NCBI GenBank assembly: GCA_043822345.1
Contig: JBDRBW010000008.1
Location: 2,332 to 66,331, forward strand
Reading direction: 5' to 3'
Length of the DNA stretch: 64,000 bases
Source of the DNA: Patescibacteria group bacterium
Lineage (GTDB): Bacteria > Patescibacteriota > Minisyncoccia > UBA6257 > UBA11618
Shown: positions 12,920-45,247 of the stretch, piece by piece
How the letters are laid out: each line of letters opens with the position of its first letter
How positions within the stretch are numbered: position 1 is the first letter of the stretch
Position numbers and translations under genes: made by a program
Notes under the pieces: model-generated
Database searches by the model: none
What the model was told of the DNA's origin: nothing
What the model saw: the letters and a program-made list of their open reading frames with translations, nothing else

Positions 12920-14045
12920 TCACTCCTGGATGTTACTGCTACTGACGTTGTTGGCGGCGGTAATAATCTTGCGGAGGCAAAAATATTTCATTCGCCGCTC
13001 GACTATCGGCCCGTTGGTCAAAGCAGTAAAGCAATATAAGGGGAGGATTAGCTTTAAAAAGCTCCTCCCTTATTTCTTATTTGCGCCAGCAATTACTTTG
13101 CTTATTATGGCGGCCGCTGATTTCTCTATCGGCACGCAAAAGAAGTTTAAAAAGTATCTGGTTCACAACTACATTCTTATTGATGACAGTTCGGGGTCAA
13201 TGACCAATGCTGGCGGTCACTATGATGAGGAAAAAGATGAATGGGTTCAAAACAAGATTAGTGAAAATATCGCTTCATTGATAGCGGGTAATAAAGCGCT
13301 TTTGGAGGAGTTGAAACAAGCTCCTCGGGAAAGTAATGAGCGTGACTTGGTAGGCGTGGTGGTTTTTTCCAATGACGCTTTTGTGGTTTCTTATCCTACC
13401 AGCGATTATGACAATCTTGCTAAAAAGATTGATCTAGTATCTTGGAACCAAAGCCCATTAGGAGGCGGTACCGAGGTTGAGGATGCTTTATGGGTAGCGA
13501 TTACGATGATTGTCAAGCGCAATGGTAGGGCGGGAGGCGCCTGCTTTATTGAGGGCGAGCTGGATAGTTTGGATCGGCGAATGAAAGGCCAAGCTGGCCC
13601 GTTGGTGTTAACTAAGGAGTTAGAGCGGAAAGCTGGGTTAATTGCCCAGGAAATTAATGGAACTGCTTTTGTTATTTTCACCGATGGCGAATTCTACGAT
13701 TATGGTGAGCGCGCCGATCAACTCTCAACCACTAAGTTGTTGCAATTTTGCCAACGGCTGGGAATTCGCGTTTATCTCATTAGTACTAACATCGCTCATA
13801 CCAATATTACTTTGTTGATTAGAAAAACCGGCGGGCGGGTGGAATTTATCAAGAGCGTTCGTGACACGGAAAAACTGAAAGGTATCTATGCTGATATTGC
13901 CCAACAACAGGCCCATGAATACGTCGTTGAGGATAAGGAGGAGAAAAAATCGCTCCACCTTTTCCTCGGTATTCCCGGATTCTGCTTGCTTTTTTTGTGG
14001 TTATTGGTTAGAAATACGGTGAGCCGTTCTTTGACAGAGTCATGA
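12906..14045 (+). CDS. vWA-domain membrane protein (BatA/BatB-like)
   Basis: N-terminal TMs, MIDAS motif LIDDSSGSM, C-terminal TM. Confidence 0.7.
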   Translation: MMTINHSWMLLLLTLLAAVIILRRQKYFIRRSTIGPLVKAVKQYKGRISFKKLLPYFLFAPAITLLIMAAADFSIGTQKKFKKYLVHNYILIDDSSGSMTNAGGHYDEEKDEWVQNKISENIASLIAGNKALLEELKQAPRESNERDLVGVVVFSNDAFVVSYPTSDYDNLAKKIDLVSWNQSPLGGGTEVEDALWVAITMIVKRNGRAGGACFIEGELDSLDRRMKGQAGPLVLTKELERKAGLIAQEINGTAFVIFTDGEFYDYGERADQLSTTKLLQFCQRLGIRVYLISTNIAHTNITLLIRKTGGRVEFIKSVRDTEKLKGIYADIAQQQAHEYVVEDKEEKKSLHLFLGIPGFCLLFLWLLVRNTVSRSLTES

Positions 14046-14047
14046 TC

Positions 14048-14105
14048 GTCATTCTGAGCTTTGCGAAGAATCTTTAAAAGATCCTTCACTTACATTCAGG
14101 ATGAC
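14048..14105. repeat. Family-1 palindromic intergenic element (gtcattctgag ... gaagaatctttaaaagatccttc ... ttcaggatgac)
   Basis: It has outer inverted repeats plus a central palindrome, and lies immediately upstream of the RBS of the 14122 gene. Confidence 0.7.
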
Positions 14106-14868: not shown

Positions 14869-15928
14869 CATCCATCAGCCGATTTGGCTCTATCTGCTTT
14901 GGGCAATACCGGTGTTTTTACTAGTATTCGCTCTTTCTTGCCGAAAGTTTTATCTGTTTGACAAGCAACTGTCGCAAAAACCTTATCTCTACCAAAGAAA
15001 ATTACCGCCTTGGCGCCATCGTATTGCCAAGGCGTTGTTTTATGTTCTGGGTATGGCGATGGTGGTCGTGGCTTTAGCCGATCCCCATTATCAGAAAATG
15101 GTGCCCGAAAACATCTATAAAGGCGTGCGCATCTATTTTCTTTTTGATGTCTCCCGCTCAATGGTGATGGGTGAGGATGTTAGGCCCAGTCGAATGGCGG
15201 CCGCCAAAGAGGAAATTAGGGTTGCCTACGACCGCTTCGGCGGCGCCTATGAGGTGGCGCTTATTCCTTTTGCCGATGAAGCCAATGCTTATTACCATCC
15301 GCCGTCGTTTGATGTCCAAAACTTTTATATTGCCCTCAACGAACTGGACGAAGACACCATATCTTTGCCGGGCACTAATTTGGTGAATGCTTTTGGAGCG
15401 CTTAACCAACTAGTGGCCGATTTCGGCCTGCGTCCGGATACGGTTAATATCGTTGTTCTGCTGTCTGATGGCGGTAAAGAGAAATGGGCGTCCGCTGACC
15501 ATTTTGCTCTGCAAAAAGAAATAGACGAACTATTGAAAGCCGAGGGCCGATTCGTTATCTACGCCGTTGGTGTTGGCGGCAATCAACCGACCCCGATGGT
15601 CATCAGGGATCAGGGTGGTAATTTTGTCGGCTACCTGCGTGATGATGATACTGGACAGATTTACACATCTCAACTTGACGAAGAAACACTCAAGCTCGTT
15701 GCTCGCCGCGGCGGCGGTGAATACCAACGCTTTGAAAAGCAAGGTGAACTAAGCGCTATGCTTCAAAAAGTAATAGAAGAAAACAGCCAACTGCTGAATG
15801 TTACCTATTACCACCAAGACCAGCCGATCCGTCTCTGGTTCTTCCTCGCCGGCACTTTGATATTTTTATTTGGAGAGACATCTTTTTTAACAATAAAGAG
15901 AAAACAATATAACAATTTAACAATATAG
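14855..15928 (+). CDS. vWA-domain membrane protein (BatB-like)
   Basis: FLFDVSRSMV MIDAS motif, N-terminal and C-terminal TMs. Confidence 0.7.
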   Translation: MELFSIHQPIWLYLLWAIPVFLLVFALSCRKFYLFDKQLSQKPYLYQRKLPPWRHRIAKALFYVLGMAMVVVALADPHYQKMVPENIYKGVRIYFLFDVSRSMVMGEDVRPSRMAAAKEEIRVAYDRFGGAYEVALIPFADEANAYYHPPSFDVQNFYIALNELDEDTISLPGTNLVNAFGALNQLVADFGLRPDTVNIVVLLSDGGKEKWASADHFALQKEIDELLKAEGRFVIYAVGVGGNQPTPMVIRDQGGNFVGYLRDDDTGQIYTSQLDEETLKLVARRGGGEYQRFEKQGELSAMLQKVIEENSQLLNVTYYHQDQPIRLWFFLAGTLIFLFGETSFLTIKRKQYNNLTI

Positions 15929-15936
15929 AAATTAAA

Positions 15937-15966
15937 AAATCTCTGACAAGGTCAGAGATTTTTTCT
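15937..15966 (+). terminator. Intrinsic terminator at the end of the Bat-like operon
   Basis: Reads aatctctgac-aag-gtcagagatt followed by TTTTTT. Confidence 0.6.
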
Positions 15967-17143: not shown

Positions 17144-17163
17144 TTCACATTCTCCTTACTTAG

Positions 17164-17286
17164 TCATCCTGCCGCCCACAAGGGCGAGCCTCGCCTTCGG
17201 CGGGAGCATAGTCGAAGGATCTTTAAAAGATTCTTCCTGCCCGCAAGTGCTACAGCGTTGCAGGCGGGCATTCCATTCAGAATGAC
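17164..17286. repeat. Family-1 composite palindromic element (long form with two GC sub-hairpins)
   Basis: Reads gtcatcctg...gaaggatctttaaaagattcttc...cattcagaatgac. One sub-module is the reverse complement of a module in the 38428-38536 copy. Confidence 0.7.
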
Positions 17287-17324
17287 GACTATGTAATTAT
17301 CAAACAACTACCCCCACTCTAATA

Positions 17325-17357: not shown

Positions 17358-18539
17358 CTATTTGCTCTCCTCTGGATTATTGGAATCATCCGATGGCTTT
17401 GGCGCCACTGCCGGCAATTCGGGATTTGGATCGGACAGTAATAGCGGTAAAGTCATCTCAATGCCGTCGCGGTTGATTTTCAAGTCAAACTTCTTTTTAA
17501 GGTCAGCTTCTAAATAAAACGTCCGGTAAAGTTCAAACAAAACAGAATCGCTATTATCAGCCGGCAAAGTAACCGGTTTGCCATCACAAGCAAGAATAAT
17601 ATCACCGGGCTGGAAACCAACCTTAGCCGCTAACGTGTCATTAATTACCCTGGTTACCATTACTCCGGCAACCCTGGGTTTTTTGTTAATGTTACGGGCT
17701 TTCAGGTCAACTTCGTGAAAGCGGCTACTATAATCAAAACACATTTGTACTGAGCTATGCTGTATCTCACCGCCGTTTGCCTTTTTGAGGACGGGTAAGA
17801 GTCGTTTCACGTCATCAATGGGAATGGCGACACTGTAGATGTTAATTAAGGAAACCTCTCCAGTAAAGGGGTTGGCGTAAACAGCTCCCGGGTAGAGCAT
17901 TACATTAATGCCGACTACCTCGCCGTTGGTGTTTAATATGGGACTGCCGGAGTTGCCGCGATTAATCAATCCGTCATGAACAATGAGTTGCGGCTGGTCG
18001 GAGCCACTAAAAACATCATTAGGTCCGGCTAAAAAACTATTAACCTGTCCCACCGTCAACGTGTCTTTATACAAAGGTGATGGAAAACCAATACTGATTA
18101 TATCCTGGCCAATCTTGAGTTTAGCCGAAGAACCCAGAGTAGACATCGGTAATCCTTGAGCCGCTTTTGGATTAGCAAACTTAAGCAAAGCAACATCCAA
18201 GCGATGGTCGTAGCCAACCATCTTCAGTTCTACTGGTTCCCTGTCAAGCTGGCGAAAATAAGCGAGTATCTTTTTAATTGGCGGACCTTCGCCCTGATGC
18301 TCAATGTGGCCGGCGGTTAAAACCCAAATGCCATCATTGTCTTTAAAAATAAATCCGGAAAACATGCCCCAGCGCATTTCTTTTCCCATAGAACCATCCG
18401 GCTGTTGGACATCGTATTCTTGGCCGGCGGTGATGCAGATTACACTGTCGGTTTGCTGAAAAATCTTTTCATGTACAGGATCGGCGTAGGCCGATAGATT
18501 CATAACCAACAACAAAGCGATAGCCATTAAAGTTCTCAT
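17358..18539 (-). CDS. Secreted trypsin-like serine protease (S1C/HtrA-like) with PDZ-like domain; paralog of 16106-17143
   Basis: Signal peptide, GNSGSP catalytic motif, TAGHI His region, RBS aggagg. Confidence 0.75.
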   Translation of the reverse strand: MRTLMAIALLLVMNLSAYADPVHEKIFQQTDSVICITAGQEYDVQQPDGSMGKEMRWGMFSGFIFKDNDGIWVLTAGHIEHQGEGPPIKKILAYFRQLDREPVELKMVGYDHRLDVALLKFANPKAAQGLPMSTLGSSAKLKIGQDIISIGFPSPLYKDTLTVGQVNSFLAGPNDVFSGSDQPQLIVHDGLINRGNSGSPILNTNGEVVGINVMLYPGAVYANPFTGEVSLINIYSVAIPIDDVKRLLPVLKKANGGEIQHSSVQMCFDYSSRFHEVDLKARNINKKPRVAGVMVTRVINDTLAAKVGFQPGDIILACDGKPVTLPADNSDSVLFELYRTFYLEADLKKKFDLKINRDGIEMTLPLLLSDPNPELPAVAPKPSDDSNNPEESK

Positions 18540-18675
18540 TGCACTCCTCCTTTGGTTCGCCGAAGTTTTAACATAGGCGACCTTTCAACGTTCTAATTTA
18601 ACAATCTCACAGTGCCAATTATTACGTCAACCCCTACATTTTTCAAAAATTTGTGGTATAATATGGTCATAGTCG

Positions 18676-18720
18676 GGAGGGTTGGCAGAGCGGTTTAATG
18701 CAGCGGTCTTGCCACCGCCT
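18676..18720 (+). pseudogene. Orphan 5' half of a type-II (Ser-like) tRNA, with no matching 3' half
   Basis: GGAGGGTTGGCAGAGCGGTTTAATGCAGCGGTCTTGCCACCGC matches the 5' portion of the Ser tRNAs here (acceptor, D-arm, anticodon stem). It is preceded by an extended -10 (tgtggtataat). The hairpin repeats follow instead of a variable arm and T-arm. Confidence 0.4.
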
Positions 18721-18767
18721 TCGGCGGGGTCCCGCTTACCTTGATTTTGTAAAAGGTAATAGGCGGG
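18705..18767 (+). repeat. Two-hairpin structured repeat, copy 1
   Basis: Consensus GGTCTTGCC-ACCGCC-TTCG-GCGGGGT-CCCGCTTACCTT-(AT loop)-AGGTAGTAAGCGGG-AAAAACCGC. Four copies lie within ~700 bp. Confidence 0.6.
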
Positions 18768-18832
18768 CCACCGCCTACGGCGGGGTCCCACTTACCTTAT
18801 TTTTAAAAAAGTAGTAAGCGGGAAAAAACCGC
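18768..18832 (+). repeat. Two-hairpin structured repeat, copy 2 (fused to copy 1)
   Basis: Reads ccaccgcctacggcggggtcccacttacctt-atttttaaaaa-agtagtaagcgggaaaaaaccgc. Confidence 0.6.
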
Positions 18833-18842
18833 ATTCGTTATC

Positions 18843-19088
18843 ATGTATAGTGTTTATATTCTGAAAAGTTTGCACCATAATAGATATTATGTTGGCCATA
18901 CTGAAAATATTGTCAAAAGATTGATCCAACACAATAATGGCAAAGTACGTTCCACAAAAGGATATCGACCTTGGCGGTTGGTTTATCAGGAAAACTTTTC
19001 TACCAAACAACTTGCTTACAGAAGAGAATTACTCATAAAATCTTACAAACACGGAGAAGCGTTCAAAAAGTTGATAGAGGAGGGGTGA
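18843..19088 (+). CDS. GIY-YIG nuclease-family protein (small stand-alone, UPF0213/YhbQ-like)
   Basis: YSVYILKS...RYYVGHTENIVKRLIQHNNG...RPWRLVYQE is a GIY-YIG core. 81 aa. Confidence 0.65.
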   Translation: MYSVYILKSLHHNRYYVGHTENIVKRLIQHNNGKVRSTKGYRPWRLVYQENFSTKQLAYRRELLIKSYKHGEAFKKLIEEG

Positions 19089-19104
19089 TAAATAATATCA
19101 GAGC

Positions 19105-19186
19105 GGAGGGTTGGCAGAATGGCAATGCACTGGTTTTGAAAACCAGCGGGCGCAAGCCCTTACAGGTTCGAGTCCTGTACCCTCCG
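19105..19186 (+). tRNA. tRNA-Ser (anticodon TGA), type II
   Basis: Reads GGAGGGTTGGCAGAATGGCAATGCACTGGTTTTGAAAACCAG-CGGGCGCAAGCCCTTAC-AGGTTCGAGTCCTGTACCCTCCG. Flanked by an inverted repeat (atatcagagc / gctctgatat). Confidence 0.85.
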
Positions 19187-19204
19187 CTCTGATATTATTT
19201 GCAT

Positions 19205-19275
19205 GGTCTTGCCACCGCCTTTGGCGGGGTCCCGCTTACCTTATTTTTAAAAAAGTAGTAAGCGGGAAAAACCGC
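19205..19275 (+). repeat. Two-hairpin structured repeat, copy 3
   Basis: Same consensus as copy 1. Runs directly into the orphan tRNA 3' half. Confidence 0.6.
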
Positions 19276-19318
19276 TATGTCCGAAAGGGCATCGTGGGTT
19301 CGAATCTCACCCCCTCCG
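19271..19318 (+). pseudogene. Orphan 3' half of a type-II tRNA (anticodon-stem 3' strand, variable arm, T-arm, acceptor)
   Basis: Reads ACCGC-TATGTCCGAAAGGGCATC-GTGGGTTCGAATCTCAC-CCCCTCC-G. No 5' half lies upstream, only the repeat. The 3' flank ctctggtattatt matches the flank of tRNA-Ser(TGA). Confidence 0.45.
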
Positions 19319-19337
19319 CTCTGGTATTATTCAAAAC

Positions 19338-19411
19338 GGTCTTGCCACCGCCTTCGGCGGGGTCCCGCCCACCTTAATTTTTAAAAAAAGGTAGTAGGCG
19401 GGAAAAACCGC
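19338..19411 (+). repeat. Two-hairpin structured repeat, copy 4
   Basis: Reads ggtcttgccaccgccttcggcggggtcccgcccacctt-aatttttaaaaaa-aggtagtaggcgggaaaaaccgc. Confidence 0.6.
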
Positions 19412-19465
19412 TCCCAAGAGCTTGAATGTTTGCAAAATTGTAGCTATAAATGCTATAAATAATTC

Positions 19466-19672
19466 ATGACATCAACAACATTAATTAGAGAATATAAGTC
19501 TGTTGTCAACGAGAAAAATGAACTGAAGAAGCGTCTTTTTAAGCTGGAACAAAATTTAGACTTGATGGCTGATTACACTCAAAAGGTAAAAAGTATTGAA
19601 CAAGCTCGTAACCAAGCAAAAAACGGTCAGGTTGTCAGTCAAGATAAATTGTTTAAAAAATTGGGTGTCTAA
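19466..19672 (+). CDS. Putative antitoxin of a type II TA pair (68 aa)
   Basis: Small charged helical protein. Overlaps the downstream RelE/ParE-like gene by ~8 nt. Confidence 0.4.
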   Translation: MTSTTLIREYKSVVNEKNELKKRLFKLEQNLDLMADYTQKVKSIEQARNQAKNGQVVSQDKLFKKLGV

Positions 19673-19931
19673 TTGGATTTTTTTATATACCAAAAATGCC
19701 GAGGAAGATTTAATATCCTTACCGAAAGATCTTCAAAAAAGAATCGCTAAAAAAATGCGATTCTTTGCTAATTCTGATAACCCTCTAAGATTTTCTAGTA
19801 CAATTAGAGATACTACATTAGGAGATTATCGTTTTAGAATTGGTGACTATAGAGTTGTTTTTGACGTAAATCAAAACAAAAAAGAAATTATTGTTTTAAA
19901 AATTAAATTAAGAGACAAAGTTTATAAATAG
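19665..19931 (+). CDS. RelE/ParE-family toxin (GTG start inferred)
   Basis: IFLYTKNAEEDL...YRFRIGDYRVVFDVNQNKKEIIVLKIKLRDKVY matches the ParE/RelE fold signature. The start is uncertain (GTG at 19665). Confidence 0.65.
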   Translation: MSNWIFLYTKNAEEDLISLPKDLQKRIAKKMRFFANSDNPLRFSSTIRDTTLGDYRFRIGDYRVVFDVNQNKKEIIVLKIKLRDKVYK

Positions 19932-19936
19932 AAAAC

Positions 19937-19975
19937 CCCCAGCGGACCTTGCGGCTAGCTGGGGCGTTTGTGTTT
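19937..19975. terminator. Bidirectional terminator hairpin cccccagc...gctggggg
   Basis: 8-bp GC stem with flanking A and T tracts, between convergent genes. Confidence 0.5.
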
Positions 19976-19985
19976 GAACTATGCA

Positions 19986-20723
19986 CTAGAAGGGTACATC
20001 GGTAACGCTTTTTGAAATAGTTTTTTCAACGATATTCTTAATTTTATCCCTGATGTTTTTTTGGTCTTTATCTTTATTAGCTAAGATTTCGGGAATGTAT
20101 TTTATATCATTAGCAGACCCCCGCTCTCCTTTTTTGATTAAACATAAATCAATTATACGGAAATTTCCTGTTTTGTGGTCAAAAAAGAAATTTTCTGGAT
20201 AGGGGTCTATACAAAGACCTACTTCATTTAGTTTACTAATAATCTTAATAAGACCAAGAAGTTCTCGCTTACTATAATCAAAGATATTTCTCTTTATTCT
20301 TTTAGAAACTACCTCGCCTAAAGCAAGTTCCATAACTATAGCTTTATCTTTTATAGAATATGCTAAAACACTAGGAATATTTTTAACATTATTAGCAATA
20401 ATATTAGCTATAATTTTTTTATAAAAAATAATAAGTTCATTATTAAAATTTTCTTCTGTAATTGTATGTAAGCCATATAGGACAACCGCATATTTTAAAG
20501 CGCCTACACCTAATTTATATGTAGCAGTTGTGCTTCCTTCTCCAATAAACATTGGGGATTCCCGAGGGTCTTTGAGTAATTCAACTCTTTCCCTAAGTTC
20601 TTTAACTTTGTCAGAAAATACAAGCTTATATTTTTCGGAAAGCTTAAATAGCTGACCTAATATATATTCTCTCTTATCTTTAGTAATTCCATATTCTTTT
20701 ATAATCTGCTCAATATTTTTCAT
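19986..20723 (-). CDS. Hypothetical protein with a protein-kinase-like / aminoglycoside-phosphotransferase-like motif arrangement
   Basis: Gly-rich loop IGEGSTTATYK, a catalytic-loop-like CIDPYPENFFFD, and a DFG-like RIIDL. Markedly AT-rich relative to its neighbours. Confidence 0.4.
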   Translation of the reverse strand: MKNIEQIIKEYGITKDKREYILGQLFKLSEKYKLVFSDKVKELRERVELLKDPRESPMFIGEGSTTATYKLGVGALKYAVVLYGLHTITEENFNNELIIFYKKIIANIIANNVKNIPSVLAYSIKDKAIVMELALGEVVSKRIKRNIFDYSKRELLGLIKIISKLNEVGLCIDPYPENFFFDHKTGNFRIIDLCLIKKGERGSANDIKYIPEILANKDKDQKNIRDKIKNIVEKTISKSVTDVPF

Positions 20724-21636: not shown

Positions 21637-21770
21637 AGTTTATTTGGAGGAGATAGACAATATTTTATTGCTAAATTGCTTTATTGCTAGATTGCTCATC
21701 CTCTCTAGTTCTCCCTTAGAGAGGGAGAAAAAACAGTATAACAATACAGCAATATAACAATAAAAAAACT
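21637..21770. repeat. Intergenic repeat family 3 copy, in the divergent comF/pilM promoter region
   Basis: Reads ttgctaaattgctttattgctagattgc ... ctcccttagagagggag ... aaaaaacagtataacaatacagcaatataacaataaaaaaa. ORF-track entry 21569-21757 is a spurious translation of it. Confidence 0.5.
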
Positions 21771-21788
21771 ATGATATAATTTAATTAT

Positions 21789-22886: not shown

Positions 22887-22966
22887 GTCATTCTGAGGCG
22901 AAGCCGAGTTTGACTCGGCGAAGACGAAGAATCTTTTAAAGATCCTTCACTAGCGTTCAGGATGAC
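22887..22966. repeat. Family-1 palindromic element
   Basis: Reads gtcattctgaggcgaagccgagtttgactcggcgaagacgaagaatcttttaaagatccttcactagcgttcaggatgac. Confidence 0.7.
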
Positions 22967-23533: not shown

Positions 23534-23628
23534 GTCATTCTGAGCTTCGCGCCCGCCTGCAACGCTTGAGCGTAGCGATTGCGGGCAGGAAGAATCTTTA
23601 AAAGATCCCTCGACAAGCTCGGGATGAC
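23534..23628. repeat. Family-1 palindromic element (long form)
   Basis: Reads gtcattctgagcttcgcgcccgcctgcaacgc...gcgattgcgggcaggaagaatctttaaaagatccctcgacaagctcgggatgac. Confidence 0.7.
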
Positions 23629-24495: not shown

Positions 24496-24575
24496 GTCAT
24501 TTCGAGCTTGTCGAGAAATCTCATCAACTTCTGTTATATCAAGCATTGAGATCTCTCCACTGCGGTCGAGATGAC
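24496..24575. repeat. Family-1 variant element (gtcatttcgag ... gagaaatctcat ... tcgagatgac)
   Basis: Palindromic. The same variant lies at 38428-38536 and partially at 57781-57805. Confidence 0.6.
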
Positions 24576-24586: not shown

Positions 24587-26296
24587 ATGACCAACAAAGA
24601 GCTTTTAGACAAAATAGTGTCGGCCGATCTTTTGTCAGCTCAACGGGCTGACAAATTACTAGCAGAGGCCGAGGTTACCCACCAAAGCGTGGAGGATTTG
24701 CTATATGACCGGCGGTTGGTGGAGGAGATAGAAGTTGCCAGAATCAAAAGCAAGCTACTCGGCATTCCCTTTAAAAAAGTTAATATTAATAACATCAACG
24801 ACGAAGTTTTAGGGCTATTGCCCGAAGAGACGGTTACTAATTACAAAGTAGTGCCGTTGGGCAAGGAGGATAAGATGTTGGTTGTCGGCCTGGTTCATCC
24901 CGATGACCGGCGCGCCCAAGACGCCCTTCGTTATATTGCTAAGCAAAAAAAGATGAGTTTGGGGGTGTACCTGATAACTCCCAGCGATTTGGAGTTGGTA
25001 ATGCGCCGTTATTCGCCATTAAGCAGTCAGATTGAGGCGGCGGTGCGTTCCATACAGGTGAAACCAGGACGGGGCGAGGGGACGAAAAAAATTGGATTAG
25101 AGCAGATGTCCGAGGTTTCCGAGGAGGCGCCGATTATTAAAATCGTCGCCTCAACCTTGAAAGAGGCGGTCAGTATTGGCGCCTCCGATATTCATATTGA
25201 ACCCCAGCGGACTCGACTTCGGTTTCGCTTTCGGATTGATGGTATTTTGCGCGAGGAGCAATCCTTGCCCGCTGAATTGCACTCGGCGATTATCTCCCGC
25301 GTTAAAATTCTTTCCAACCTAAAAATTGATGAAAATCGTGTTCCCCAGGACGGCCGTTTTCGCACCGAAATTTTTGGTCGTGAAATTGATTTTCGTGTTT
25401 CCTCCTTTCCCACGCCATCGGGCGAAAAGGTGGCGATTCGCGTCCTTGACCCCAAAGTGGGTTTAAAACAACTAGATGAATTGGGGGTGAGCGGCCAATC
25501 CGAAGCGATTATTAAAAAAGGAATTGAAGAACCTTTCGGTATGATTTTAATTACCGGCCCTACTGGTTCCGGTAAAACAACCACGCTCTATGCCTTGATG
25601 CAGAAGCTCAATAAAGAAGATGTTAATGTTGTCAGTTTGGAGGATCCGGTGGAGTATACAATAGAAGGCGTTAACCAATCACAGGTACGGCCGGAGATCG
25701 GCTATACCTTTGCTTCTGGTCTGCGCCAGATTTTGCGCCAGGACCCTGACGTGATGATGGTCGGCGAGGTTCGCGATCGGGAAACCGCCGACTTAGCGGT
25801 ACACTCGGCGCTGACCGGCCACATTGTGCTCTCTACCCTGCATACTAATAACGCTGTCGGCGTTATTCCGCGCTTGATTGATATGGACGTTGACGCTTTT
25901 CTTCTGCCTTCGGTTTTGAATCTGATGGTCTCCCAGCGGCTGGTTTCCAAGCTTTGCCAAGAGTGTAAACAACAGGAGTCGCCGTCGGAAACAATTCAAG
26001 GGATTATTGAAAAAGAGGTTGGCGGTATGGTTAAGGGTCCCTATCAGGTTTGGAAGGCGTTGGGTTGTAAGGCGTGCAATAACAAGGGACGCAAGGGGCG
26101 GGTTGGCCTCTTTGAAGTTTTGCAGATGACGCCGCAGTTGGCCGATATCATCAACACCCAACCCACTGAAAATAAAATTCTGGAGGAAACTAGGCGGCAG
26201 AAGATGGTTACCCTCCGCCAGGACGGCATCCTCAAAGCGCTAGAGGGTCTAGTTAGTATTGAAGAAGTCCTCCGCGAAACCGCCGCATCTACGTAA
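24587..26296 (+). CDS. pilB: Type IV pilus assembly ATPase PilB (GspE family)
   Basis: N-terminal GSPII_E-like domain, Walker A GPTGSGKTTT, Asp/His boxes, and a C-terminal tetra-Cys (CQECK...CKACNNKG). Confidence 0.9.
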   Translation: MTNKELLDKIVSADLLSAQRADKLLAEAEVTHQSVEDLLYDRRLVEEIEVARIKSKLLGIPFKKVNINNINDEVLGLLPEETVTNYKVVPLGKEDKMLVVGLVHPDDRRAQDALRYIAKQKKMSLGVYLITPSDLELVMRRYSPLSSQIEAAVRSIQVKPGRGEGTKKIGLEQMSEVSEEAPIIKIVASTLKEAVSIGASDIHIEPQRTRLRFRFRIDGILREEQSLPAELHSAIISRVKILSNLKIDENRVPQDGRFRTEIFGREIDFRVSSFPTPSGEKVAIRVLDPKVGLKQLDELGVSGQSEAIIKKGIEEPFGMILITGPTGSGKTTTLYALMQKLNKEDVNVVSLEDPVEYTIEGVNQSQVRPEIGYTFASGLRQILRQDPDVMMVGEVRDRETADLAVHSALTGHIVLSTLHTNNAVGVIPRLIDMDVDAFLLPSVLNLMVSQRLVSKLCQECKQQESPSETIQGIIEKEVGGMVKGPYQVWKALGCKACNNKGRKGRVGLFEVLQMTPQLADIINTQPTENKILEETRRQKMVTLRQDGILKALEGLVSIEEVLRETAAST

Positions 26297-26385
26297 TAGT
26301 GTCATCCCGCACTATAGTGTCATCCCGCACTATAGTGTCATCCCGCACTATAGTGTCATCCCGCACTATAGTGTCATCCCGCACT
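26296..26385. repeat. Tandem array of 5 x 18 bp (atagtgtcatcccgcact) immediately after the pilB stop
   Basis: Five perfect direct repeats. Each unit is a mini-hairpin containing the family-1 terminus gtcatccc. ORF-track entry 26259-26513 is a spurious translation. Confidence 0.8.
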
Positions 26386-26470
26386 TGATGCGGGATCCAT
26401 TACATCACTGTCATCCCGGAATCCTTCCCATCTGTCATCCCGGAATTTCGCGCAGCGAAATATCCGGGAT
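26386..26470. repeat. Cluster of short palindromes related to family 1 (gtcatcccgca..tgcgggatc; gtcatcccggaatttcgcg...cgaaatatccgggatc)
   Basis: Read directly from the sequence. Confidence 0.5.
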
Positions 26471-26877: not shown

Positions 26878-28185
26878 ATGAAAAAGCAAAACGCTTTTTG
26901 GTTGATGTTTGCCATTATCATGGTTGGTTTTGTTTTAATTTGGGTTGGCGGTAGTTTTGGCTCCACATCGCAACCAAGGGTTCAAGCTGCTTCCTGTCTC
27001 GATCCACCAACTTGTCCTGACCCAATGACTTCGGCTTGTGTGCGAATTGAGCCCTCGGGTTCAATCTGTACTACTGCTAGTGGTTGGCGTAGTCCAAGTA
27101 GGGCTTGGTGCGGTGAATTAATGAGCGGTGGTCACTACGAACTTACTAATGGTGGTTGTGCCGCTCCGGGATTTGAAAGTTGCTCCGCTTGCACAGGAAG
27201 TAACTGCTATTCCCTTTCTTATGACTGTGCTGGCAGTACGCCAATACATAAGCCAGTAGTAAAATGCACCGAATGTTACAAGGGTCTGTGCGGAGAAGAG
27301 CCCCCTTGTGGTAATGGCAGGTTAGAACTAGAAGAATGTGAAGAGTGTGATGACAGCAATACTATTAGTGGCGATGGCTGTAGTGACAGGTGTGAGATTG
27401 AGGGCACCGATCCAGTTTGTGGCAATAGCAAAAGAGAGGGAGATGAAGAGTGTGATGGAGACGATATTGCTGATTGTCCAAGGCCCGATTGTGAATGCAC
27501 GATTAGATGTAACGATGATTGTGTATGTGTTTATGATCCGATTGAGCCAGAGTGTGGCAACAGCATTGTTGAACCGCCAGAGCAGTGCGACGACGGCAAC
27601 ACTGACGACACTGATGGTTGTATGAATTGTATGATACAAAAAGGAAATTGTGAGCCGTCAGGGCTTTGTGGCAATGGAGAAGTGACGCCACCCGAGCAGT
27701 GTGAAGGTAGTGGAAGTTGTGAGAGTGTTTGTGTGGGTGATAAAGAGGGATGGATAGAGTATTGTGGTGATAAGCCTCTAGGAGCCTGCTCAGGAGCGCA
27801 CTGTGAGGTAGATGGCGCTAGTTGTATTCCCACATTTGACGAGGATGGAATGGATAATTTCTGTCAAGGTATACCGAGCTGTACTGGAACTATTTTTTGT
27901 AAATTAGCTGGAGCAGGAGCGACCTGCAACCCCGATTCTTGTATGTGTGAACCGCCAGTAACCGAATGTGGTAATGGTATTACAGAACCACCAGAACAAT
28001 GCGACGATGGCAATAATATTGACGGCGATGGCTGCGGTAGCACCTGCGTAATAGAGGGTGGCGGTGGAGATTGTGGCGGTGTTACTTGTGGGAGTGGGGA
28101 GAAGTGTTGTATTTGCGATCCGTTTCATGGAATGGACTCATACTGCACTACTATCAGCGACTGCATCTGTCCAATTTCCGATTAA
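26878..28185 (+). CDS. N-terminally anchored cysteine-rich repeat surface protein (Myxococcus-type CxxC-x-PPEQCDDGN-x4-DGC repeats)
   Basis: Start MKKQNAFWLMFAIIMVGFVLIWV (TM anchor). Multiple ~38-aa repeats of the form CGNG..EPPEQCDDGNT.DGDGC..C. Confidence 0.7.
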   Translation: MKKQNAFWLMFAIIMVGFVLIWVGGSFGSTSQPRVQAASCLDPPTCPDPMTSACVRIEPSGSICTTASGWRSPSRAWCGELMSGGHYELTNGGCAAPGFESCSACTGSNCYSLSYDCAGSTPIHKPVVKCTECYKGLCGEEPPCGNGRLELEECEECDDSNTISGDGCSDRCEIEGTDPVCGNSKREGDEECDGDDIADCPRPDCECTIRCNDDCVCVYDPIEPECGNSIVEPPEQCDDGNTDDTDGCMNCMIQKGNCEPSGLCGNGEVTPPEQCEGSGSCESVCVGDKEGWIEYCGDKPLGACSGAHCEVDGASCIPTFDEDGMDNFCQGIPSCTGTIFCKLAGAGATCNPDSCMCEPPVTECGNGITEPPEQCDDGNNIDGDGCGSTCVIEGGGGDCGGVTCGSGEKCCICDPFHGMDSYCTTISDCICPISD

Positions 28186-28196
28186 TAAATAAACAT

Positions 28197-29840
28197 ATGA
28201 AATCAATTCCACTAAAAACGAAATTATCCAATCAAGCTCTATTTTGGGTGGTTTTTGTTGTGGTGGTTGTTGGATTAATATTGTTATTTGCTTTTAGTAA
28301 TAATTGGCGAGCGCTGGCGGACACGCAATATTGCACCGAAGATGGCTCTGGTGGTGTTTTTACTAATGCGCTTGGTTGGGCATCGCATGCCACTCCATTT
28401 TGTTGCGCTGGAAGTATAAGTTCGTGTATTTCGGTTCCTAGTTGCAGTGGTAGCGGTTGTTATCTCCATAATTTTTCTTGTATGGGAGACACACCAGTAA
28501 GCGCAGAAGATCCAATAAGTTCGTGTGGTAATGGAATTTGTGGTAATAGCACTCCAGAACCACCGGAGCAGTGCGACGATGGCAATACTGTGAGTGGCGA
28601 TGGCTGTAGTAGTACTTGTACTAATGAAGGGGGAGGAGGTTGTGGTAGTTGTGGTGATAGGGCGTTGAATTTGGGTGAGGGATGTGATGATGGCAATATT
28701 GTTGACGGTGATGGTTGTAGCAGTATTTGTGAGGATGAAGATGAAGTTTGGTCTACCAGCGAAGAATGTCAGAATGCCAATTACCCGCTCTGTTGTCCTT
28801 ATAACCCAGTAGTAAGTGGATTTACTCCTCTCGCGGGAACCGATTGCAGTGATCTTCCATTCCCTACCTGTTTTAATTGTGTGTTTGATTTATATCAAGA
28901 GACATGTGAACCGGGAATAGATGAAACGGCTTGCGCTGATTATGAGAGATGTATTTTCTGTAGTTGTACGCCTACGGGTACTCCTCACCCCGGTTTTTGT
29001 GGTGATAGTATTATAGATGAAGGTGAGGAATGTGATGATGGTCAGTATTGTGAGAATGGAACACCTTGTACAGAAGAGGATGATAGAGAATGTCTTGGTA
29101 TTGGTGATGGATTGTGCAAACCTCGCGGTGGCGATGGTTGTAGTTATTATTGTCAAATCGAAGGCGGTTTTTGTGGCGATGGCATTTTAGAGCCGCCGGA
29201 ATTTTGTGAAATTGATGCGGATTGCGCAATCTTTGGTTCTTCAAAATGCAAGAGCGATTGCACGTGCGATGAAATACCACCCGATGAATGTTTATATTGC
29301 GGTGATGGAATAGTAAACTTGAGTTTGGAGCAATGCGATGATGGCAATAATACCAACGGTGATGGCTGTAGTTATAATTGCAAGATAGAGACCGGTCCCA
29401 TGTGCGTAATCGGCGATGGCGTCATCAATCCTCCCGATGAAAATTGTGATACCGATGCGGATTGTGGAGAGTGTGTTCCTCATGAGGACTGCTTTGGTTT
29501 CATGTGCGAAGGATTAGATGCCGATAGTTGTGCGCATACAGAGTGTGTACCGGGAACATCTGGCAGTAGTTGTCCTAAAGTATGTACTCTTGATGGTGGC
29601 TACTGTGAACCCAGTTCCGGTCTAATAGATTACTGTACAGGATTAGAACCATCAGAGTGTAGCGGCTACAATCCAGTGGTAGGGGGGCCAAAAAATCCAT
29701 ATTGCGCAGGTAGTGGGGCAGGAACTTGTTACCCCGACACCTGTAACTGCGACTTGCCATTAGGCACGCCAGGGCAGATATGGGACAGTATTATTAATAA
29801 GACCATGAAATCATATCTTAATAATTATATTAATGAGTAA
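28197..29840 (+). CDS. N-terminally anchored cysteine-rich repeat surface protein, paralog
   Basis: Start MKSIPLKTKLSNQALFWVVFVVVVVGLILLF. The N-terminal ~145 aa are near-identical to the protein at 30721. Several CDDGN..DGDGCS repeats. Confidence 0.7.
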   Translation: MKSIPLKTKLSNQALFWVVFVVVVVGLILLFAFSNNWRALADTQYCTEDGSGGVFTNALGWASHATPFCCAGSISSCISVPSCSGSGCYLHNFSCMGDTPVSAEDPISSCGNGICGNSTPEPPEQCDDGNTVSGDGCSSTCTNEGGGGCGSCGDRALNLGEGCDDGNIVDGDGCSSICEDEDEVWSTSEECQNANYPLCCPYNPVVSGFTPLAGTDCSDLPFPTCFNCVFDLYQETCEPGIDETACADYERCIFCSCTPTGTPHPGFCGDSIIDEGEECDDGQYCENGTPCTEEDDRECLGIGDGLCKPRGGDGCSYYCQIEGGFCGDGILEPPEFCEIDADCAIFGSSKCKSDCTCDEIPPDECLYCGDGIVNLSLEQCDDGNNTNGDGCSYNCKIETGPMCVIGDGVINPPDENCDTDADCGECVPHEDCFGFMCEGLDADSCAHTECVPGTSGSSCPKVCTLDGGYCEPSSGLIDYCTGLEPSECSGYNPVVGGPKNPYCAGSGAGTCYPDTCNCDLPLGTPGQIWDSIINKTMKSYLNNYINE

Positions 29841-30702
29841 ATTAAATCTGCAAAAAATGAAATTAACCAACCAGCCGTTGTTTTGGCTAATATTCATTAT
29901 AATAGTCATTGGATTAGTTTTGTTGTTTACTATAGACGTTTTTGGAATTACTGGTCGTCAGACAAGAATTTTGGCTGGTGGATATTGTGGTGATGGAAAC
30001 GTTGATACTGGCTTGGGCGAACAGTGCGATGATGGCAACAGAATTATAGGCGACGGCTGTGATAACTGCCAAATTACAGGTGGCGGTTATTGCGGAGATG
30101 GTAATTTAGACGCCGGTGAAGAATGTGACGATGGCAATACTAATAATAATGATGGCTGCGCCGACTGTCGCAGGCAAACTCCAGGATGCGTTATTAGGTG
30201 TGGCAATGGAGAAGTGACGCCACCCGAGGAGTGTGATGATGGTAATCTCACTAACGGCGATGGCTGTAGTAGTACTTGTCAAAACGAGCGTCCCAGTCAG
30301 TGTGAATATCCAGTGTGTAGCGATATTAAAGATTGTGAAAAGTGTAATAGCTACGACGCCTGCCGTTGGGGAACACAGATAGGTGTTTGTTTGTTTATGG
30401 ATAAGTGTGAGCCGCCTCTAGTAGAGAGTATAAATGGTTGCGTGCCTTGTGGGGGTGTGGAGAGATGCGAGCCTGGCTCCTGTCCAAGTGGTTATTCTTG
30501 TTGCCTCGCTTCTAGTGGAGTCAGTGAGTGCGTCCTGGGTTTTGATTGTGGCGGCTTTATTCCTTGCGGCGACGGTCCCCCGTGTATGGCTGCAACAGAG
30601 GAGTGTTGTATGACGGCAACAATGGGGCCAACCTGCATACCCAAAGGAGCGCATTGTGAAAAAAGCGGACCCGGATCTCCTATTTTCTGGAGATGGAATT
30701 AG
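29833..30702 (+). CDS. N-terminally anchored cysteine-rich repeat surface protein, short paralog
   Basis: MSKLNLQKMKLTNQPLFWLIFIIIVIGLVLLF, followed by CGDGN..EQCDDGN repeats. Confidence 0.65.
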   Translation: MSKLNLQKMKLTNQPLFWLIFIIIVIGLVLLFTIDVFGITGRQTRILAGGYCGDGNVDTGLGEQCDDGNRIIGDGCDNCQITGGGYCGDGNLDAGEECDDGNTNNNDGCADCRRQTPGCVIRCGNGEVTPPEECDDGNLTNGDGCSSTCQNERPSQCEYPVCSDIKDCEKCNSYDACRWGTQIGVCLFMDKCEPPLVESINGCVPCGGVERCEPGSCPSGYSCCLASSGVSECVLGFDCGGFIPCGDGPPCMAATEECCMTATMGPTCIPKGAHCEKSGPGSPIFWRWN

Positions 30703-30720
30703 GGGTAATTAATAAAAAAG

Positions 30721-38427: not shown

Positions 38428-38536
38428 GTCATTTCGAGCTTGTCGAGAAATCTCATAATCGTCGTAATAAAGTTGATGAGATCCTTCGATATGCTCCCGC
38501 CGAAGGCGAGGCTCGCCCTTATGGGCGGCAGGATGA
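38428..38536. repeat. Family-1 variant/composite element abutting the pilT start
   Basis: Reads gtcatttcgagcttgtcgagaaatctcat ... gctcccgccgaaggcgaggctcgcccttatgggcggcaggatgacg. One module is the reverse complement of a module in the 17164-17286 copy. Confidence 0.7.
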
Positions 38537-38547
38537 CGAATGACGAT

Positions 38548-39624: not shown

Positions 39625-39706
39625 GTCATCCTGAGGGCGAAGTCGAGTCTGACTCGACGTAGCCCGAAGGATCTTTAAAAAGATTCTTCACCTTGTTCAG
39701 AATGAC
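39625..39706. repeat. Family-1 palindromic element
   Basis: Reads gtcatcctgagggcgaagtcgagtctgactcgacgtagcccgaaggatctttaaaaagattcttcaccttgttcagaatgac. Confidence 0.7.
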
Positions 39707-42841: not shown

Positions 42842-43351
42842 ATGAAAACCCTATACCCTAAACCCTATACCCTAAACCCTAAAAATGGTTACATTCTTGT
42901 GGAATCGGTGGTGGCGATGACGATAGTTGTTGTCGGTCTTTTGGGCATCTTTTCTTTACTTTCCCAATCACTAAGCTTGAATCGGGTGGTGGGGGATAGA
43001 TATGTGGGCACTTACTTGGCGGCCGAGGGTATTGAGGTGGCGAAGAATATTATTGACAATAATATCGTCAACAGCCGCCCTTGGAACGCCGGTTTTAGCA
43101 ACGGCTCATTTGAGGTTGATTTTGATAGCTTGAGCTTGGAAAGTAATCTTAACCGCTACATCAAGCTTGACTCGCCTAATGGCCGTTATGGTTATCGCGA
43201 TGGCGCCGACACTCGTTTCAAAAGAACGATTAAGATTGAGTTATTAGGTAGCGGTGAGGAAATCAAGGTTAATTCTGTTGTTAAGTGGCTTAGCCGTGGC
43301 GAAGCCGACTTTAAGGTCGATTTAGAAGACCACTTCTTTAACTGGCGTTAA
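42842..43351 (+). CDS. Minor pilin / pseudopilin (leader MKTLYPKPYTLNPKNG|YILVESVVA)
   Basis: Prepilin motif. The leader is encoded by CCCTAAA/CCCTATA simple repeats. Confidence 0.6.
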   Translation: MKTLYPKPYTLNPKNGYILVESVVAMTIVVVGLLGIFSLLSQSLSLNRVVGDRYVGTYLAAEGIEVAKNIIDNNIVNSRPWNAGFSNGSFEVDFDSLSLESNLNRYIKLDSPNGRYGYRDGADTRFKRTIKIELLGSGEEIKVNSVVKWLSRGEADFKVDLEDHFFNWR

Positions 43352-43860
43352 TGATCACAAAAACACAAAAACACAAAAACACCCGTGGCTTCACTATGAT
43401 CGAATTACTGGTTGCTACCACTCTTTTTGTGGTGGTGATTGGCATTGCTTCAGGTCTGTTTATCCAATCATTGCGTAGCCAGCGGGCGACGATGGCGCTG
43501 ATGGCCGCCAACGATAACGCCAGTTTAACTTTAGAGCAGATGTCGCGGGAGATTCGCATCGGTTCAATGTTTTCCACCAATAGCGATGGCACGCAGTTGA
43601 GTTTTACCAGTCAGCGCTCTGGCGCGGTAATTTACCGCTTTGACGACGCTAATGGCTTGATAGAAAGAAACGGCATCGCGCTTACTAGTGACAATGTTGA
43701 AGTCGTTTATTTATATTTTGATTTGATGGGCGAGGAGTTGGGCGATGGCCAGTCAACGCGCGTGACTATTCGTCTGGGAGTGAGCGCTAATGATGAGCGC
43801 GCTCAAGATATTGTTACTCGTTTACAAACAACAGTTAGTTCCCGTCAACTTGACACTTAA
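43351..43860 (+). CDS. Minor pilin / pseudopilin (leader MITKTQKHKNTRG|FTMIELLVA)
   Basis: Prepilin motif. The leader is encoded by ACACAAAAAC repeats (family-2 element) flanked by a direct ATGATC repeat. Confidence 0.6.
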   Translation: MITKTQKHKNTRGFTMIELLVATTLFVVVIGIASGLFIQSLRSQRATMALMAANDNASLTLEQMSREIRIGSMFSTNSDGTQLSFTSQRSGAVIYRFDDANGLIERNGIALTSDNVEVVYLYFDLMGEELGDGQSTRVTIRLGVSANDERAQDIVTRLQTTVSSRQLDT

Positions 43861-43862
43861 TC

Positions 43863-43945
43863 ATGAAAACACAAAAACACAAAAGCACCCGGCCTTCGGC
43901 CTCAAAACACATGAATAATTGTTTTCGTGTTTTCGTGTTTTCGTG
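43863..43945. repeat. Family-2 element (ACACAAAAAC direct repeats, GGCCTTCGGCC hairpin, inverted TTTTCGTGTTTTCGTG repeats)
   Basis: Read directly. Related copies lie at 43351-43395 and 50950-51033. Confidence 0.6.
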
Positions 43946-43965
43946 TTTTCGTGAACAAGGGCAGG

Positions 43966-45156: not shown

Positions 45157-45236
45157 GTCATTCTGAGGTGAAGCTGAGTCTGACTCGGCGAAGCCGAAGA
45201 ATCTTAAAAAGATTCTTCACCAGCGTTCAGAATGAC
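45157..45236. repeat. Family-1 palindromic element
   Basis: Reads gtcattctgaggtgaagctgagtctgactcggcgaagccgaagaatcttaaaaagattcttcaccagcgttcagaatgac. Confidence 0.7.
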
Positions 45237-45247
45237 CGACCGAATAC

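Follow-up and report, generated by a model that had tools for sequence, protein, structure and literature searches.

A tRNA-Ser(UGA) locus in a Patescibacteria genome, probably occupied by a minimal GIY-YIG nuclease gene and its hairpin repeats

We describe a tRNA-Ser(UGA) locus of a Patescibacteria group bacterium (assembly GCA_043822345.1, contig JBDRBW010000008.1), in which pieces of a tRNA gene, copies of a two-hairpin module (HP), and a gene for a small GIY-YIG nuclease are interleaved. The locus spans positions 18676-19411, on the plus strand, of a 64-kb stretch of DNA (positions 2,332 to 66,331 of the contig); this whole stretch is referred to as the window. It contains a tRNA-Ser 5' part, four HP copies, the GIY-YIG open reading frame (ORF), an intact tRNA-Ser(UGA) gene, and a tRNA-Ser 3' part. 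Read directly from the sequence, the order is tRNA 1-35, HP, HP, tRNA 36-43, ORF, leader, intact tRNA, trailer, tRNA 29-35, HP, tRNA 36-73, trailer, tRNA 29-35, HP, and tRNA 36-43, where the numbers are tRNA positions. The features are:

18654-18662 (+): putative extended -10 promoter TGgTATAAT, 14 nt 5' of the tRNA 5' part (direct reading)
18676-18711 (+): tRNA-Ser 5' part, positions 1-35, ending at G35 of the anticodon UGA
18712-18767 (+): HP copy R1 (repeat search, core match, folding)
18768-18824 (+): HP copy R2, fused head to tail with R1 (repeat search, core match, folding)
18825-18832 (+): tRNA positions 36-43 (AAAACCGC) after R1 and R2, 10 nt 5' of the ATG (direct reading)
18843-19088 (+): gene for an 81-aa GIY-YIG nuclease (Pfam PF01541) of the Slx1/UPF0213-like minimal type
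19090-19104 (+): leader arm of the intact tRNA, which pairs with the trailer and lengthens the acceptor stem
19105-19187 (+): intact tRNA-Ser(UGA), type B (ARAGORN; Rfam, 59.8 bits)
19186-19200 (+): trailer arm of the intact tRNA, complementary to the leader
19205-19267 (+): GGTCTTG (tRNA 29-35, A type) and HP copy R3, the latter at 19212-19267 (reading, repeats, folding)
19268-19318 (+): tRNA-Ser 3' part, positions 36-73, with the anticodon-stem 3' strand, long variable arm, T arm, acceptor strand CCCCTCC, and discriminator G (direct reading, repeat search, in-silico join)
19319-19331 (+): trailer copy (G19318 + CTCTGGTATTATT = GCTCTGGTATTATT), 13/14 identical to the intact tRNA trailer
19338-19411 (+): solo unit GGTCTTG-R4-AAAACCGC (R4 at 19345-19403), with no tRNA body after R4

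Much of this inventory had been put forward from the bare letters by a model, whose account we call the original prediction: a Ser tRNA 5' half-like sequence fused to HP copies 1 and 2, four copies of a two-hairpin repeat, a GIY-YIG ORF, a complete tRNA-Ser(TGA), and HP copy 3 running into a type II tRNA 3' half, followed by copy 4. All of these parts are present. The first 14 nt of the 5' part are exactly those of the intact tRNA, and the 3' part with its trailer is 80% identical to the 3' end and trailer of the intact tRNA. The extended -10 sequence is absent from a consensus promoter scan because it lacks a good -35 hexamer, and the ORF has no obvious Shine-Dalgarno sequence. The stretch of continuing tRNA sequence between HP and the ATG is also present in homologous loci. 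A perfect 22-nt inverted repeat (19090-19111 and 19179-19200; 22/22) brackets the intact tRNA and adds 15 bp to its acceptor stem; in the other four tRNAs of the window the extension is 0-1 bp.

The HP core, CCACCGCCTTCGGCGGGGTCCCGC, matches four times with up to 3 mismatches, at 18712, 18768, 19212, and 19345, and nowhere else in the 64 kb. In 100 shuffles the number of matches expected by chance is 0, and an independent repeat search returns the identical four-copy family. The four copies differ from one another (72-95% identity), and each folds into two adjacent hairpins of -23 to -29.7 kcal/mol (z = -2.0 to -3.5 against shuffles). The first hairpin, H1, reads CC(A)CCGCC-TTC-GGCGGGG in R1, with a bulged A; the second, H2, combines a GC clamp with an AT-rich extension, in R1 a long AT-looped stem (CCCGCTTACCTT...AAGGTAATAGGCGGG). 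By direct reading, the H1 3' strand is complementary to the H2 5' strand, which makes an alternative, junction-like fold of HP possible. A permissive Rfam search of 18000-20000 (E up to 10) returns only tRNA, with no intron, ribozyme, or known motif over the hairpins. Since the core recurs against an expectation of zero, the hairpins fold, and Pfam, ARAGORN, and Rfam all make their calls, we take the features to be real and not the product of chance.

The ORF product matches the Pfam GIY-YIG family at 56 bits (cut-off 22.6; E = 5e-15) over residues 1-67. Residues Y5, Y16, G18, R26, H30, N31, and E62 are invariant across 28 homologues and include the catalytic Tyr/Tyr/Arg/Glu positions. Among solved structures, the protein lies nearest to two UPF0213 proteins, BH0048 and EF2693, and to SLX1, which is a structure-specific endonuclease of eukaryotes; the best PDB matches are 1zg2 (UPF0213 BH0048, 6e-5), 7cq2 (SLX1, 2e-4), and 1ywl (0.016). 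At 81 aa, the protein is the catalytic domain alone, with no accessory DNA-binding domain of the I-TevI or SegB kind. NCBIfam yields nothing above threshold (the model for group I intron endonucleases scores 14.8 bits, with a cut-off of 56), PADLOC gives weak partial matches to one candidate family and no known defence system, and PHROGs gives no match. A "GIY-YIG nuclease family protein" from a Patescibacteria metagenome-assembled genome matches the window protein at 100% identity, and many relatives lie at 50-70%. The family comprises 596 protein clusters at 50% identity (E<=1e-10) and reaches across phyla, with 66% identity between the window protein and an Ignavibacteriales copy. A literature search on YhbQ returned no function for the bacterial UPF0213 family.

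When HP (CC...GGGA) is removed between G35 and A36, the two tRNA halves meet as GCGGU-CUUGAAA-ACCGC with a normal 7-nt anticodon loop. To ARAGORN this product is a canonical class II tRNA-Ser(UGA) of 88 nt; it has a long variable arm and one acceptor mismatch, T7.C66. The original prediction had joined the halves at a shared ACCGC; that join leaves a 6-nt loop and an undetermined isotype, and the 35/36 join replaces it. As one alternative, the original prediction had proposed a split tRNA in which the repeat hairpins mediate joining. Spelled out, this would be a true split or intron-containing tRNA, whose halves would be brought together through HP pairing while ~550 nt, including the ORF and the nested tRNA, are removed to yield a second functional tRNA-Ser(UGA). 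The in-silico join agrees with this proposal, as do the palindromic HP copies at the junctions, which could pair with each other, and the GGU/ACC flanks, which close a stem around HP in the predicted folds. We nevertheless consider it very improbable, and the weakest of the rival ideas. Between the halves stands an intact tRNA with the same anticodon, and most homologous loci also have an intact tRNA of this kind; the halves are mosaic and carry the T7.C66 mismatch; and the searches proposed together with the prediction, ARAGORN with introns allowed over the whole locus and Rfam, recover only the intact tRNA, with no intron, ribozyme, or Rfam family over the repeat. In addition, we know of no bacterial machinery for splicing of this kind.

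The joined split copy (A) and the intact copy (B) are ~70% identical. B agrees with the tRNA-Ser(CGA) gene of the window (6288-6370) at 78/83 positions, with all five differences in the anticodon arm. A is closest to the tRNA-Ser(UGA) genes of other lineages (L025, 0.83; L080, 0.81), and UGA is the anticodon in 10/12 best matches. The halves themselves are mixed: nt 1-14 of the 5' half are of the B type, including T7, and nt 15-35 are of the A type, and in the 3' part the acceptor strand CCCCTCC is of the A type but the trailer is 13/14 identical to that of B. Such mosaics are as expected if the copies had recombined with each other. The original prediction had the insertion carry its own tRNA-Ser copy. 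Because the intact tRNA closely matches the genome's own tRNA-Ser(CGA) and the halves are mosaic, an outside origin as cargo lacks support, and the intact copy may be host-derived. We lean towards the view that A came first and gave way to a remoulded copy of the Ser(CGA) type, over the view that A-type arms travelled with the element; similarities among isoacceptors are suggestive only as a guide to which type is native. The tRNA-Ser(CGA) gene abuts a tRNA-Arg(CCU) gene with zero spacer (6288-6443, minus strand). Its body is 94% identical to tRNA-Ser(UGA) at 19105-19187, 12.7 kb away on the opposite strand in the manner of an inverted repeat, which suggests a recent duplication with an anticodon switch.

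The arrangement recurs at other tRNA genes. A scan of one genome per species returned 174 protein relatives, and 80 of those loci were fetched and examined, with a locus search built on an alignment of 9 sequences. They span many Patescibacteria classes, Ignavibacteria, Bacteroidota, Omnitrophota, Armatimonadota, and others. In nearly all of the ~80 loci, the start of an intact tRNA on the same strand falls between a few nt ahead of the ORF stop and ~30 nt past it, and the stop codon is often borrowed from this tRNA. Where an ORF copy has a tRNA beside it, that tRNA is most often Ser (38) or Tyr (20), with small numbers each of Thr, Gln, Gly, Cys, and Pro; the Ser partners carry four different anticodons. 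The usual upstream feature is a 5' copy of the partner tRNA that begins exactly at +1 and is broken by HP, after ~position 14 or ~20/21 in the D loop, or at 34/35 (Tyr) or 35/36 (Ser) in the anticodon loop; the tRNA copy then resumes for 6-18 nt ahead of the ATG. One plan is shared by loci at tRNA-Tyr (L001), tRNA-Ser(UGA) (L002), and tRNA-Gln (L003): a 5' tRNA copy with a CCACCGCC..GGCGGGG / CCGC..GCGG two-hairpin insert, the ORF from ATG to stop, and a complete tRNA. In outline, these loci bear out the GIY-YIG mobile insertion in a tRNA gene that the original prediction had proposed.

The hairpin is tied to the ORF by position and by type. A strict GC hairpin lies within 75 nt 5' of 63/86 distinct ORF copies, against 25/430 control segments from the same loci, and a CCGCC..GGCGG core lies upstream of 56/86 against 6/430; the enrichment is ~12-fold for any hairpin and ~45-fold for the core motif. 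The distance from HP to the ATG is nearly fixed, at 9-36 nt. HP subtype follows tRNA and ORF lineage, with TGCCGCC..GGCGGCA at Tyr and TCCCGCC..GGCGGGA at Ser. In ORF-linked HP copies, which were selected with a hairpin finder, stems are 100% paired, with double compensatory changes at three pairs, one of which shows C-G, G-C, and U-A.

In 12/63 loci, as in the window, HP and a 3' tRNA remnant also follow the intact tRNA. Clear examples are L022 (Tyr, with two tandem 3' units), L023, L040, L057, L066, and L074; in L040 HP sits in the D loop, and the downstream remnant is therefore almost a whole tRNA. The other 51/63 loci have no HP-plus-3'-part remnant within 130 nt 3' of the intact tRNA, and this too argues against a split tRNA. 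The leader-trailer extension of the acceptor stem, 15 bp in the window, measures 13 bp in L040, 12 in L066, 9 in L057, and 6 in L074, and 0-1 bp in most other tRNAs. Leader-trailer pairing was considered as a general trait of ORF-adjacent tRNAs and set aside, as it is limited to a minority (the window, L040, L057, L066, and L074), all with a downstream remnant. L013 also shows an acceptor-stem extension (outside the window, extensions are 6-13 bp). Possible roles of such stems are to aid folding among competing half copies, to allow RNase III processing, or to support fold-back DNA synthesis.

Repeats and half-tRNAs could in principle stem from mis-joined reads at a repetitive tRNA locus of a metagenome-assembled genome. 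At L001, an N run and duplicated blocks (3300-3337) are typical of scaffolding trouble. However, the same architecture appears in dozens of independent assemblies made with different assemblers, and the HP copies (72-95%) and the A and B tRNAs (~70%) differ from each other, so that they are not collapsed or duplicated reads. We regard an assembly artefact as scarcely credible.

Several loci show signs of amplification and decay. L015 carries two exact 340-nt tandem units, each with tRNA 1-20, HP, tRNA 21-28, and the ORF, followed by an intact tRNA-Tyr, and the ORFs of L004, L042, and L046 have premature stops. An ORF and its nearest neighbor go with the same tRNA isotype in 48/63 cases (mean of 24 and maximum of 36 in permutations) and with the same anticodon in 37/63 (mean 10, maximum 23); ORF lineages thus stay with a tRNA type and occasionally switch. 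This pattern bears on the proposal that the nuclease is a host factor, retained in one operon with its tRNA, that might for example process or repair class II tRNAs or the genes for them, or serve in their quality control, with the HP-bearing tRNA-like leader as a regulatory 5' untranslated region. Adjacency of ORF and tRNA across phyla, the strong Ser/Tyr bias, and the conserved catalytic residues are in line with a host role, and a Slx1-like domain fused to a TrmH-like tRNA methyltransferase has been noted (PMC1564403). On the other side, the tRNA partner varies and switches even between close ORFs; tandem ORF copies, premature stops, and partial tRNA duplications surround the gene; similarity extends across phyla, as in the Ignavibacteriales copy; and HP behaves as selfish DNA in protein genes. 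A host factor is in our judgment distinctly unlikely.

Some loci depart from the common plan. A GC hairpin stands in place of a whole tRNA arm in L037 (anticodon arm, 2335-2440) and L081 (D arm of tRNA-Pro, 52-473), and in place of the T loop in L015 (60-230) and L023 (2436-2520). These arm-replaced, tRNA-like pseudogenes are sometimes called as tRNAs by ARAGORN. HP positions in the D loop, and the replaced arms of L037 and L081, are hard to reconcile with a split tRNA. Many gene calls in the family (P0040-P0184) have N-terminal extensions that translate the hairpin (..GGVPPEAG..) or the tRNA T arm (..GSNP.., ..VRxR..); a crude regular-expression count of hairpin-encoded peptides in these extensions was too noisy for quantitative use.

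HP is also found without the ORF and away from tRNA genes. A metagenome scan for CCACCGCC-N4-GGCGGGGTSCCGC gave at least 80 HP loci, and all HP-locus counts below refer to the matches listed. In its compact form HP is ~36 nt long. Many of the listed copies are unrelated to tRNA, and 41/74 distinct loci have HP within an open frame of 100 codons or more, in either orientation. In PGK, HP encodes PPPNGGVPPE, which falls as an 8-10-residue gap against solved PGKs, directly after the DLNVPL motif. A single Pfam domain match spans HP in SerRS and in aspartate-semialdehyde dehydrogenase (Asd), and the catalytic domain of CysRS is cut into two stretches by HP; radical-SAM and VirD4-like genes also contain it. 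Such in-frame copies come from groundwater and Candidate Phyla Radiation-type metagenomes, in either orientation (L157, L101, L119, L087, L109, L126, L161, and L094), and encode peptides including PPPNGGVPPEAV, ATAMRRGPAEAV, and AASGGTPPFGGG. Because the reading frame is kept, HP in these genes is translated and not spliced out, and its position in frame within conserved protein domains is a further point against a split tRNA joined through hairpins. Repeats away from tRNA fragments, a possibility raised with the original prediction, do occur in metagenomes, in protein genes; in the 64-kb window there are none elsewhere, and no in-frame insertion in a protein gene.

These solo copies raise the question of whether HP and the nuclease gene are unrelated passengers, an RPE- or REP-like selfish palindrome that lands anywhere and persists where the DNA is dispensable, and a GIY-YIG gene that happens to live in tRNA operons, with tRNA fragments from ordinary tandem duplication as tolerant landing pads for HP. 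In keeping with this, 67/80 of the listed HP-selected loci have no GIY-YIG match; HP-bearing tRNA 5' fragments lie next to intact tRNAs without the ORF (L084, L093, L113, L116, and L145, together with the tRNA-Thr remnants of L015); and 23/86 ORFs lack a strict GC hairpin upstream. Yet a GIY-YIG relative is present in 13/80 of the listed HP-selected loci within only ~0.5 Mb of DNA in total, HP is enriched ~12- to ~45-fold over controls at a nearly fixed distance 5' of the ATG, and its subtype co-varies with tRNA and ORF lineage. We judge the passenger explanation unlikely, though not negligible.

Many solo HP copies have tandem repeats of 7-9 nt on both sides (for example TTTGCCCG, AAATCCG, or CTGTAAAGT; L101, L103, L119, L146, L149, L112, and L126). 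In two unrelated genes, (TTTGCCCG)n stands on both sides of HP; flanks shared in this way between unrelated genes seem to move together with HP.

Taken together, the comparative evidence suggests that the locus is probably a tRNA-Ser(UGA) gene occupied by a tiny homing-type selfish element, made up of a gene for a minimal Slx1/UPF0213-type nuclease and HP, which sits 10-30 nt 5' of the ATG, and embedded in partial direct duplications of the tRNA. The tRNA promoter would drive a single RNA with the HP-bearing 5' fragment, the ORF, and the intact tRNA, and the RNase P cut at the tRNA would set the mRNA 3' end. Spread or local amplification would proceed by break- or nick-induced recombination, with the tRNA sequence flanking HP as homology arms. 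Products of the form 1-k, {HP, k+1 onwards, ORF, (tRNA), up to k}n, k+1 to end would arise when a tandem or circular donor is copied, or through one crossover with an HP-bearing copy, and the survivors would be those that retain one uninterrupted tRNA. Such recombination would explain why the repeats start at tRNA +1, why extra units trail the locus (R3 with the 3' part, and R4), and why two direct HP copies with 29-35/36-43 flanks bracket the ORF and the intact tRNA. HP would act in cis as the site of the nuclease, offering a structure-specific enzyme a hairpin or cruciform as its substrate, and could also move alone; a cis site of this kind would explain HP moving alone and fits an enzyme without a DNA-binding domain. 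The half-tRNAs would be non-functional pseudogene remnants, with the intact copy supplying tRNA-Ser(UGA). The many tRNA targets, tandem units, and decayed copies are indirect signs of homing.

Several points weigh against this interpretation. The support is entirely comparative, and activity, cleavage site, transcript, and mobility are all inferred. No close relative with an empty site was found: the best homologue of the neighboring HtrA-like protease is only 38% identical, and there is thus no syntenic relative for an empty-site comparison. In several loci the anticodon arm of the intact tRNA is that of the HP-bearing copies, so that, if the nuclease cut there, the element-bearing allele would not be immune. 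The 81-aa catalytic domain has no obvious route to specific sequence recognition. ORFs without a strict upstream hairpin (23/86) and listed metagenome HP copies without a nearby ORF, which are the majority, mean that the link between ORF and HP could be indirect. The nearest ORF neighbors are at most 78% identical, and no recent transfer is visible; the viral contig collection, too, holds no relatives of the ORF.

A broader reading is that HP and the Slx1-like GIY-YIG gene form a new class of bacterial mobile DNA, in which the nuclease would recognize hairpins or cruciforms, and perhaps the loops of a DNA region able to form a tRNA cloverleaf. It would mobilize itself at tRNA genes as well as the bare hairpin, which would spread in frame through Patescibacteria housekeeping genes. 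We offer this broader reading as a tentative possibility. If the proposals are true, the element would be among the smallest conceivable autonomous selfish elements (~300 bp, a hairpin and a catalytic-domain-only nuclease), widespread at tRNA genes of Patescibacteria, Ignavibacteria, Bacteroidota, and others. It would give a concrete function to the large, uncharacterised bacterial UPF0213/Slx1-like family and account for many tRNA fragments and odd pseudo-tRNA calls in such genomes. Furthermore, the nuclease would be a candidate enzyme for in-frame palindromic insertions in essential genes, which to our knowledge are known mainly from Rickettsia and without a mobilizing enzyme; the system would then be the first GIY-YIG-driven counterpart of REP/RAYT and a mechanistic account of RPE-like elements. 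In practical terms, loci of this kind mislead tRNA finders, gene callers (through N-terminal extensions from hairpins or tRNA arms), and assemblers.

The window holds other repeats and a neighboring module. Directly 3' of the locus (19466-19931), a small antitoxin-like ORF precedes a ParE-family toxin gene (Pfam E = 7e-8), a further mobile or addiction-type module that adjoins the element. A second dispersed repeat family (GTCATTCTGAGC...CGAAGAATCTTTAAAAGATCCTTC with adjoining GC palindromes) occurs in both orientations, and in two metagenome loci (L152 and L154) HP is inserted within a repeat of this kind. The copies in the window are:

14039-14105: copy 1
17160-17310: copy 2
22925-22966: copy 3
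23551-23628: copy 4
24496-24531: copy 5
38428-38540: copy 6
39665-39706: copy 7
45195-45244: copy 8
46386-46435: copy 9
53107-53148: copy 10

Tandem arrays of 8-nt units take the forms (ATTGCTAT)n, (AACAATAT)n, and (GAAAACAC)n - small GC hairpin - (GTTTTCGT)n; arrays of the last form, of which there are three, read as a palindrome overall. The arrays are:

2865-2990: 8-nt tandem array
15890-15940: 8-nt tandem array
21659-21777: 8-nt tandem array
43346-43393: 8-nt tandem array
43852-43957: 8-nt tandem array
50950-51037: 8-nt tandem array

Five perfect tandem copies of an 18-nt unit (ATAGTGTCATCCCGCACT) occupy 26296-26394, with a CCCGCACTTGATGCGGG hairpin at the end. Long Cys-rich coding repeats (~27300-33700; motif CGNG..PPEQCDDGN..GDGCS..C, at least 15 copies) probably represent one or more giant repeat proteins.

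Literature searches on GIY-YIG enzymes with tRNA, Patescibacteria, hairpins, UPF0213/YhbQ, REP/RAYT, and in-frame palindromes did not find the arrangement described. Known systems share individual features with it. SegB of phages T4 and T6 is, as here, encoded by a free-standing GIY-YIG gene among tRNA genes and not within an intron. It recognizes tRNA-gene sequence (a T-psi-C motif) and promotes its own inheritance with neighboring tRNA genes (PMC2330249); it also drives tandem amplification of a tRNA-Tyr and segB unit and is statistically tied to tRNA genes (PMC13096335). By analogy, SegB appears to be the closest experimentally studied counterpart of the element. Unlike SegB, the protein described here has 81 aa, belongs to the Slx1/UPF0213 branch, is encoded in the chromosomes of Patescibacteria and other phyla, and lacks relatives in the viral collection searched; nor is it joined to the sequence-specific DNA-binding modules that mark SegB- and I-TevI-type nucleases. 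SegB is reportedly much larger and phage-borne, with DNA-binding modules and no hairpin module, and is said not to lie inside partial duplications of one tRNA.

Two kinds of dispersed palindrome come close to HP. REP/REPIN sequences are described as dispersed GC-rich palindromes that flank one protein gene, RAYT (TnpA-REP), and are thought to be mobilized in trans (PMC3116915 and PMC8266576). The likeness lies in a short GC-rich palindrome in many copies with a single physically associated protein gene. RAYTs, however, are HUH/Y1 transposases, whereas the gene here is of the GIY-YIG type, which places the system outside REP/RAYT; and unlike REPs, which are extragenic, HP also lies in frame in genes and in tRNA copies. 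No pairing of GIY-YIG and REP turned up in the literature searched. Rickettsia palindromic elements (RPEs) resemble HP in that a palindrome sits in frame within conserved protein-coding genes (for HP: PGK, SerRS, Asd, and CysRS), and the HP family in metagenome loci does show the RPE hallmark of a repeat within a conserved gene with the frame kept. RPEs are reportedly ~100-150 bp long and restricted to Rickettsia, with no known associated nuclease gene; unlike them, HP measures ~36 nt when compact and goes with a GIY-YIG gene.

Other systems share the tRNA target. GIY-YIG enzymes are classic intron passengers, and group I introns, like the element, break the anticodon loop of Patescibacteria tRNA genes at 35/36. 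A survey of Patescibacteria tRNA genes places group I introns at this position and does not mention GIY-YIG (PMC13011429). Unlike such introns, the locus has no ribozyme core (Rfam, 18000-20000, E up to 10), its non-coding DNA consists of HP repeats, an intact tRNA lies inside the interruption, and HP is also found in the D loop and in protein genes. Integrative elements aimed at tRNA genes likewise leave a partial tRNA direct repeat at the insert and keep an intact tRNA. They rely on a tyrosine or serine integrase, extend over kilobases, and in most cases duplicate the tRNA 3' part. Unlike them, the insert here measures ~0.3-0.6 kb and lacks an integrase, and what is duplicated is mainly the 5' part from +1. 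The split tRNAs of Nanoarchaeum, finally, also consist of separated 5' and 3' halves that would join near the anticodon loop. Archaeal halves have mutually complementary flanks, are joined by the archaeal splicing endonuclease and a ligase, and are not known to have an intact copy. Here, unlike in Nanoarchaeum, the flanks are direct repeats, an intact isoacceptor is present, the host is bacterial, and only 12/63 loci have a 3' remnant.

The locus thus belongs to none of the SegB-type, REP/RAYT, group I intron, or split-tRNA groups, as each fails on a defining feature. The arrangement is apparently undescribed, stands a fair chance of representing a distinct two-component class of mobile DNA, and appears akin both to free-standing homing-endonuclease genes and to miniature palindromic elements.

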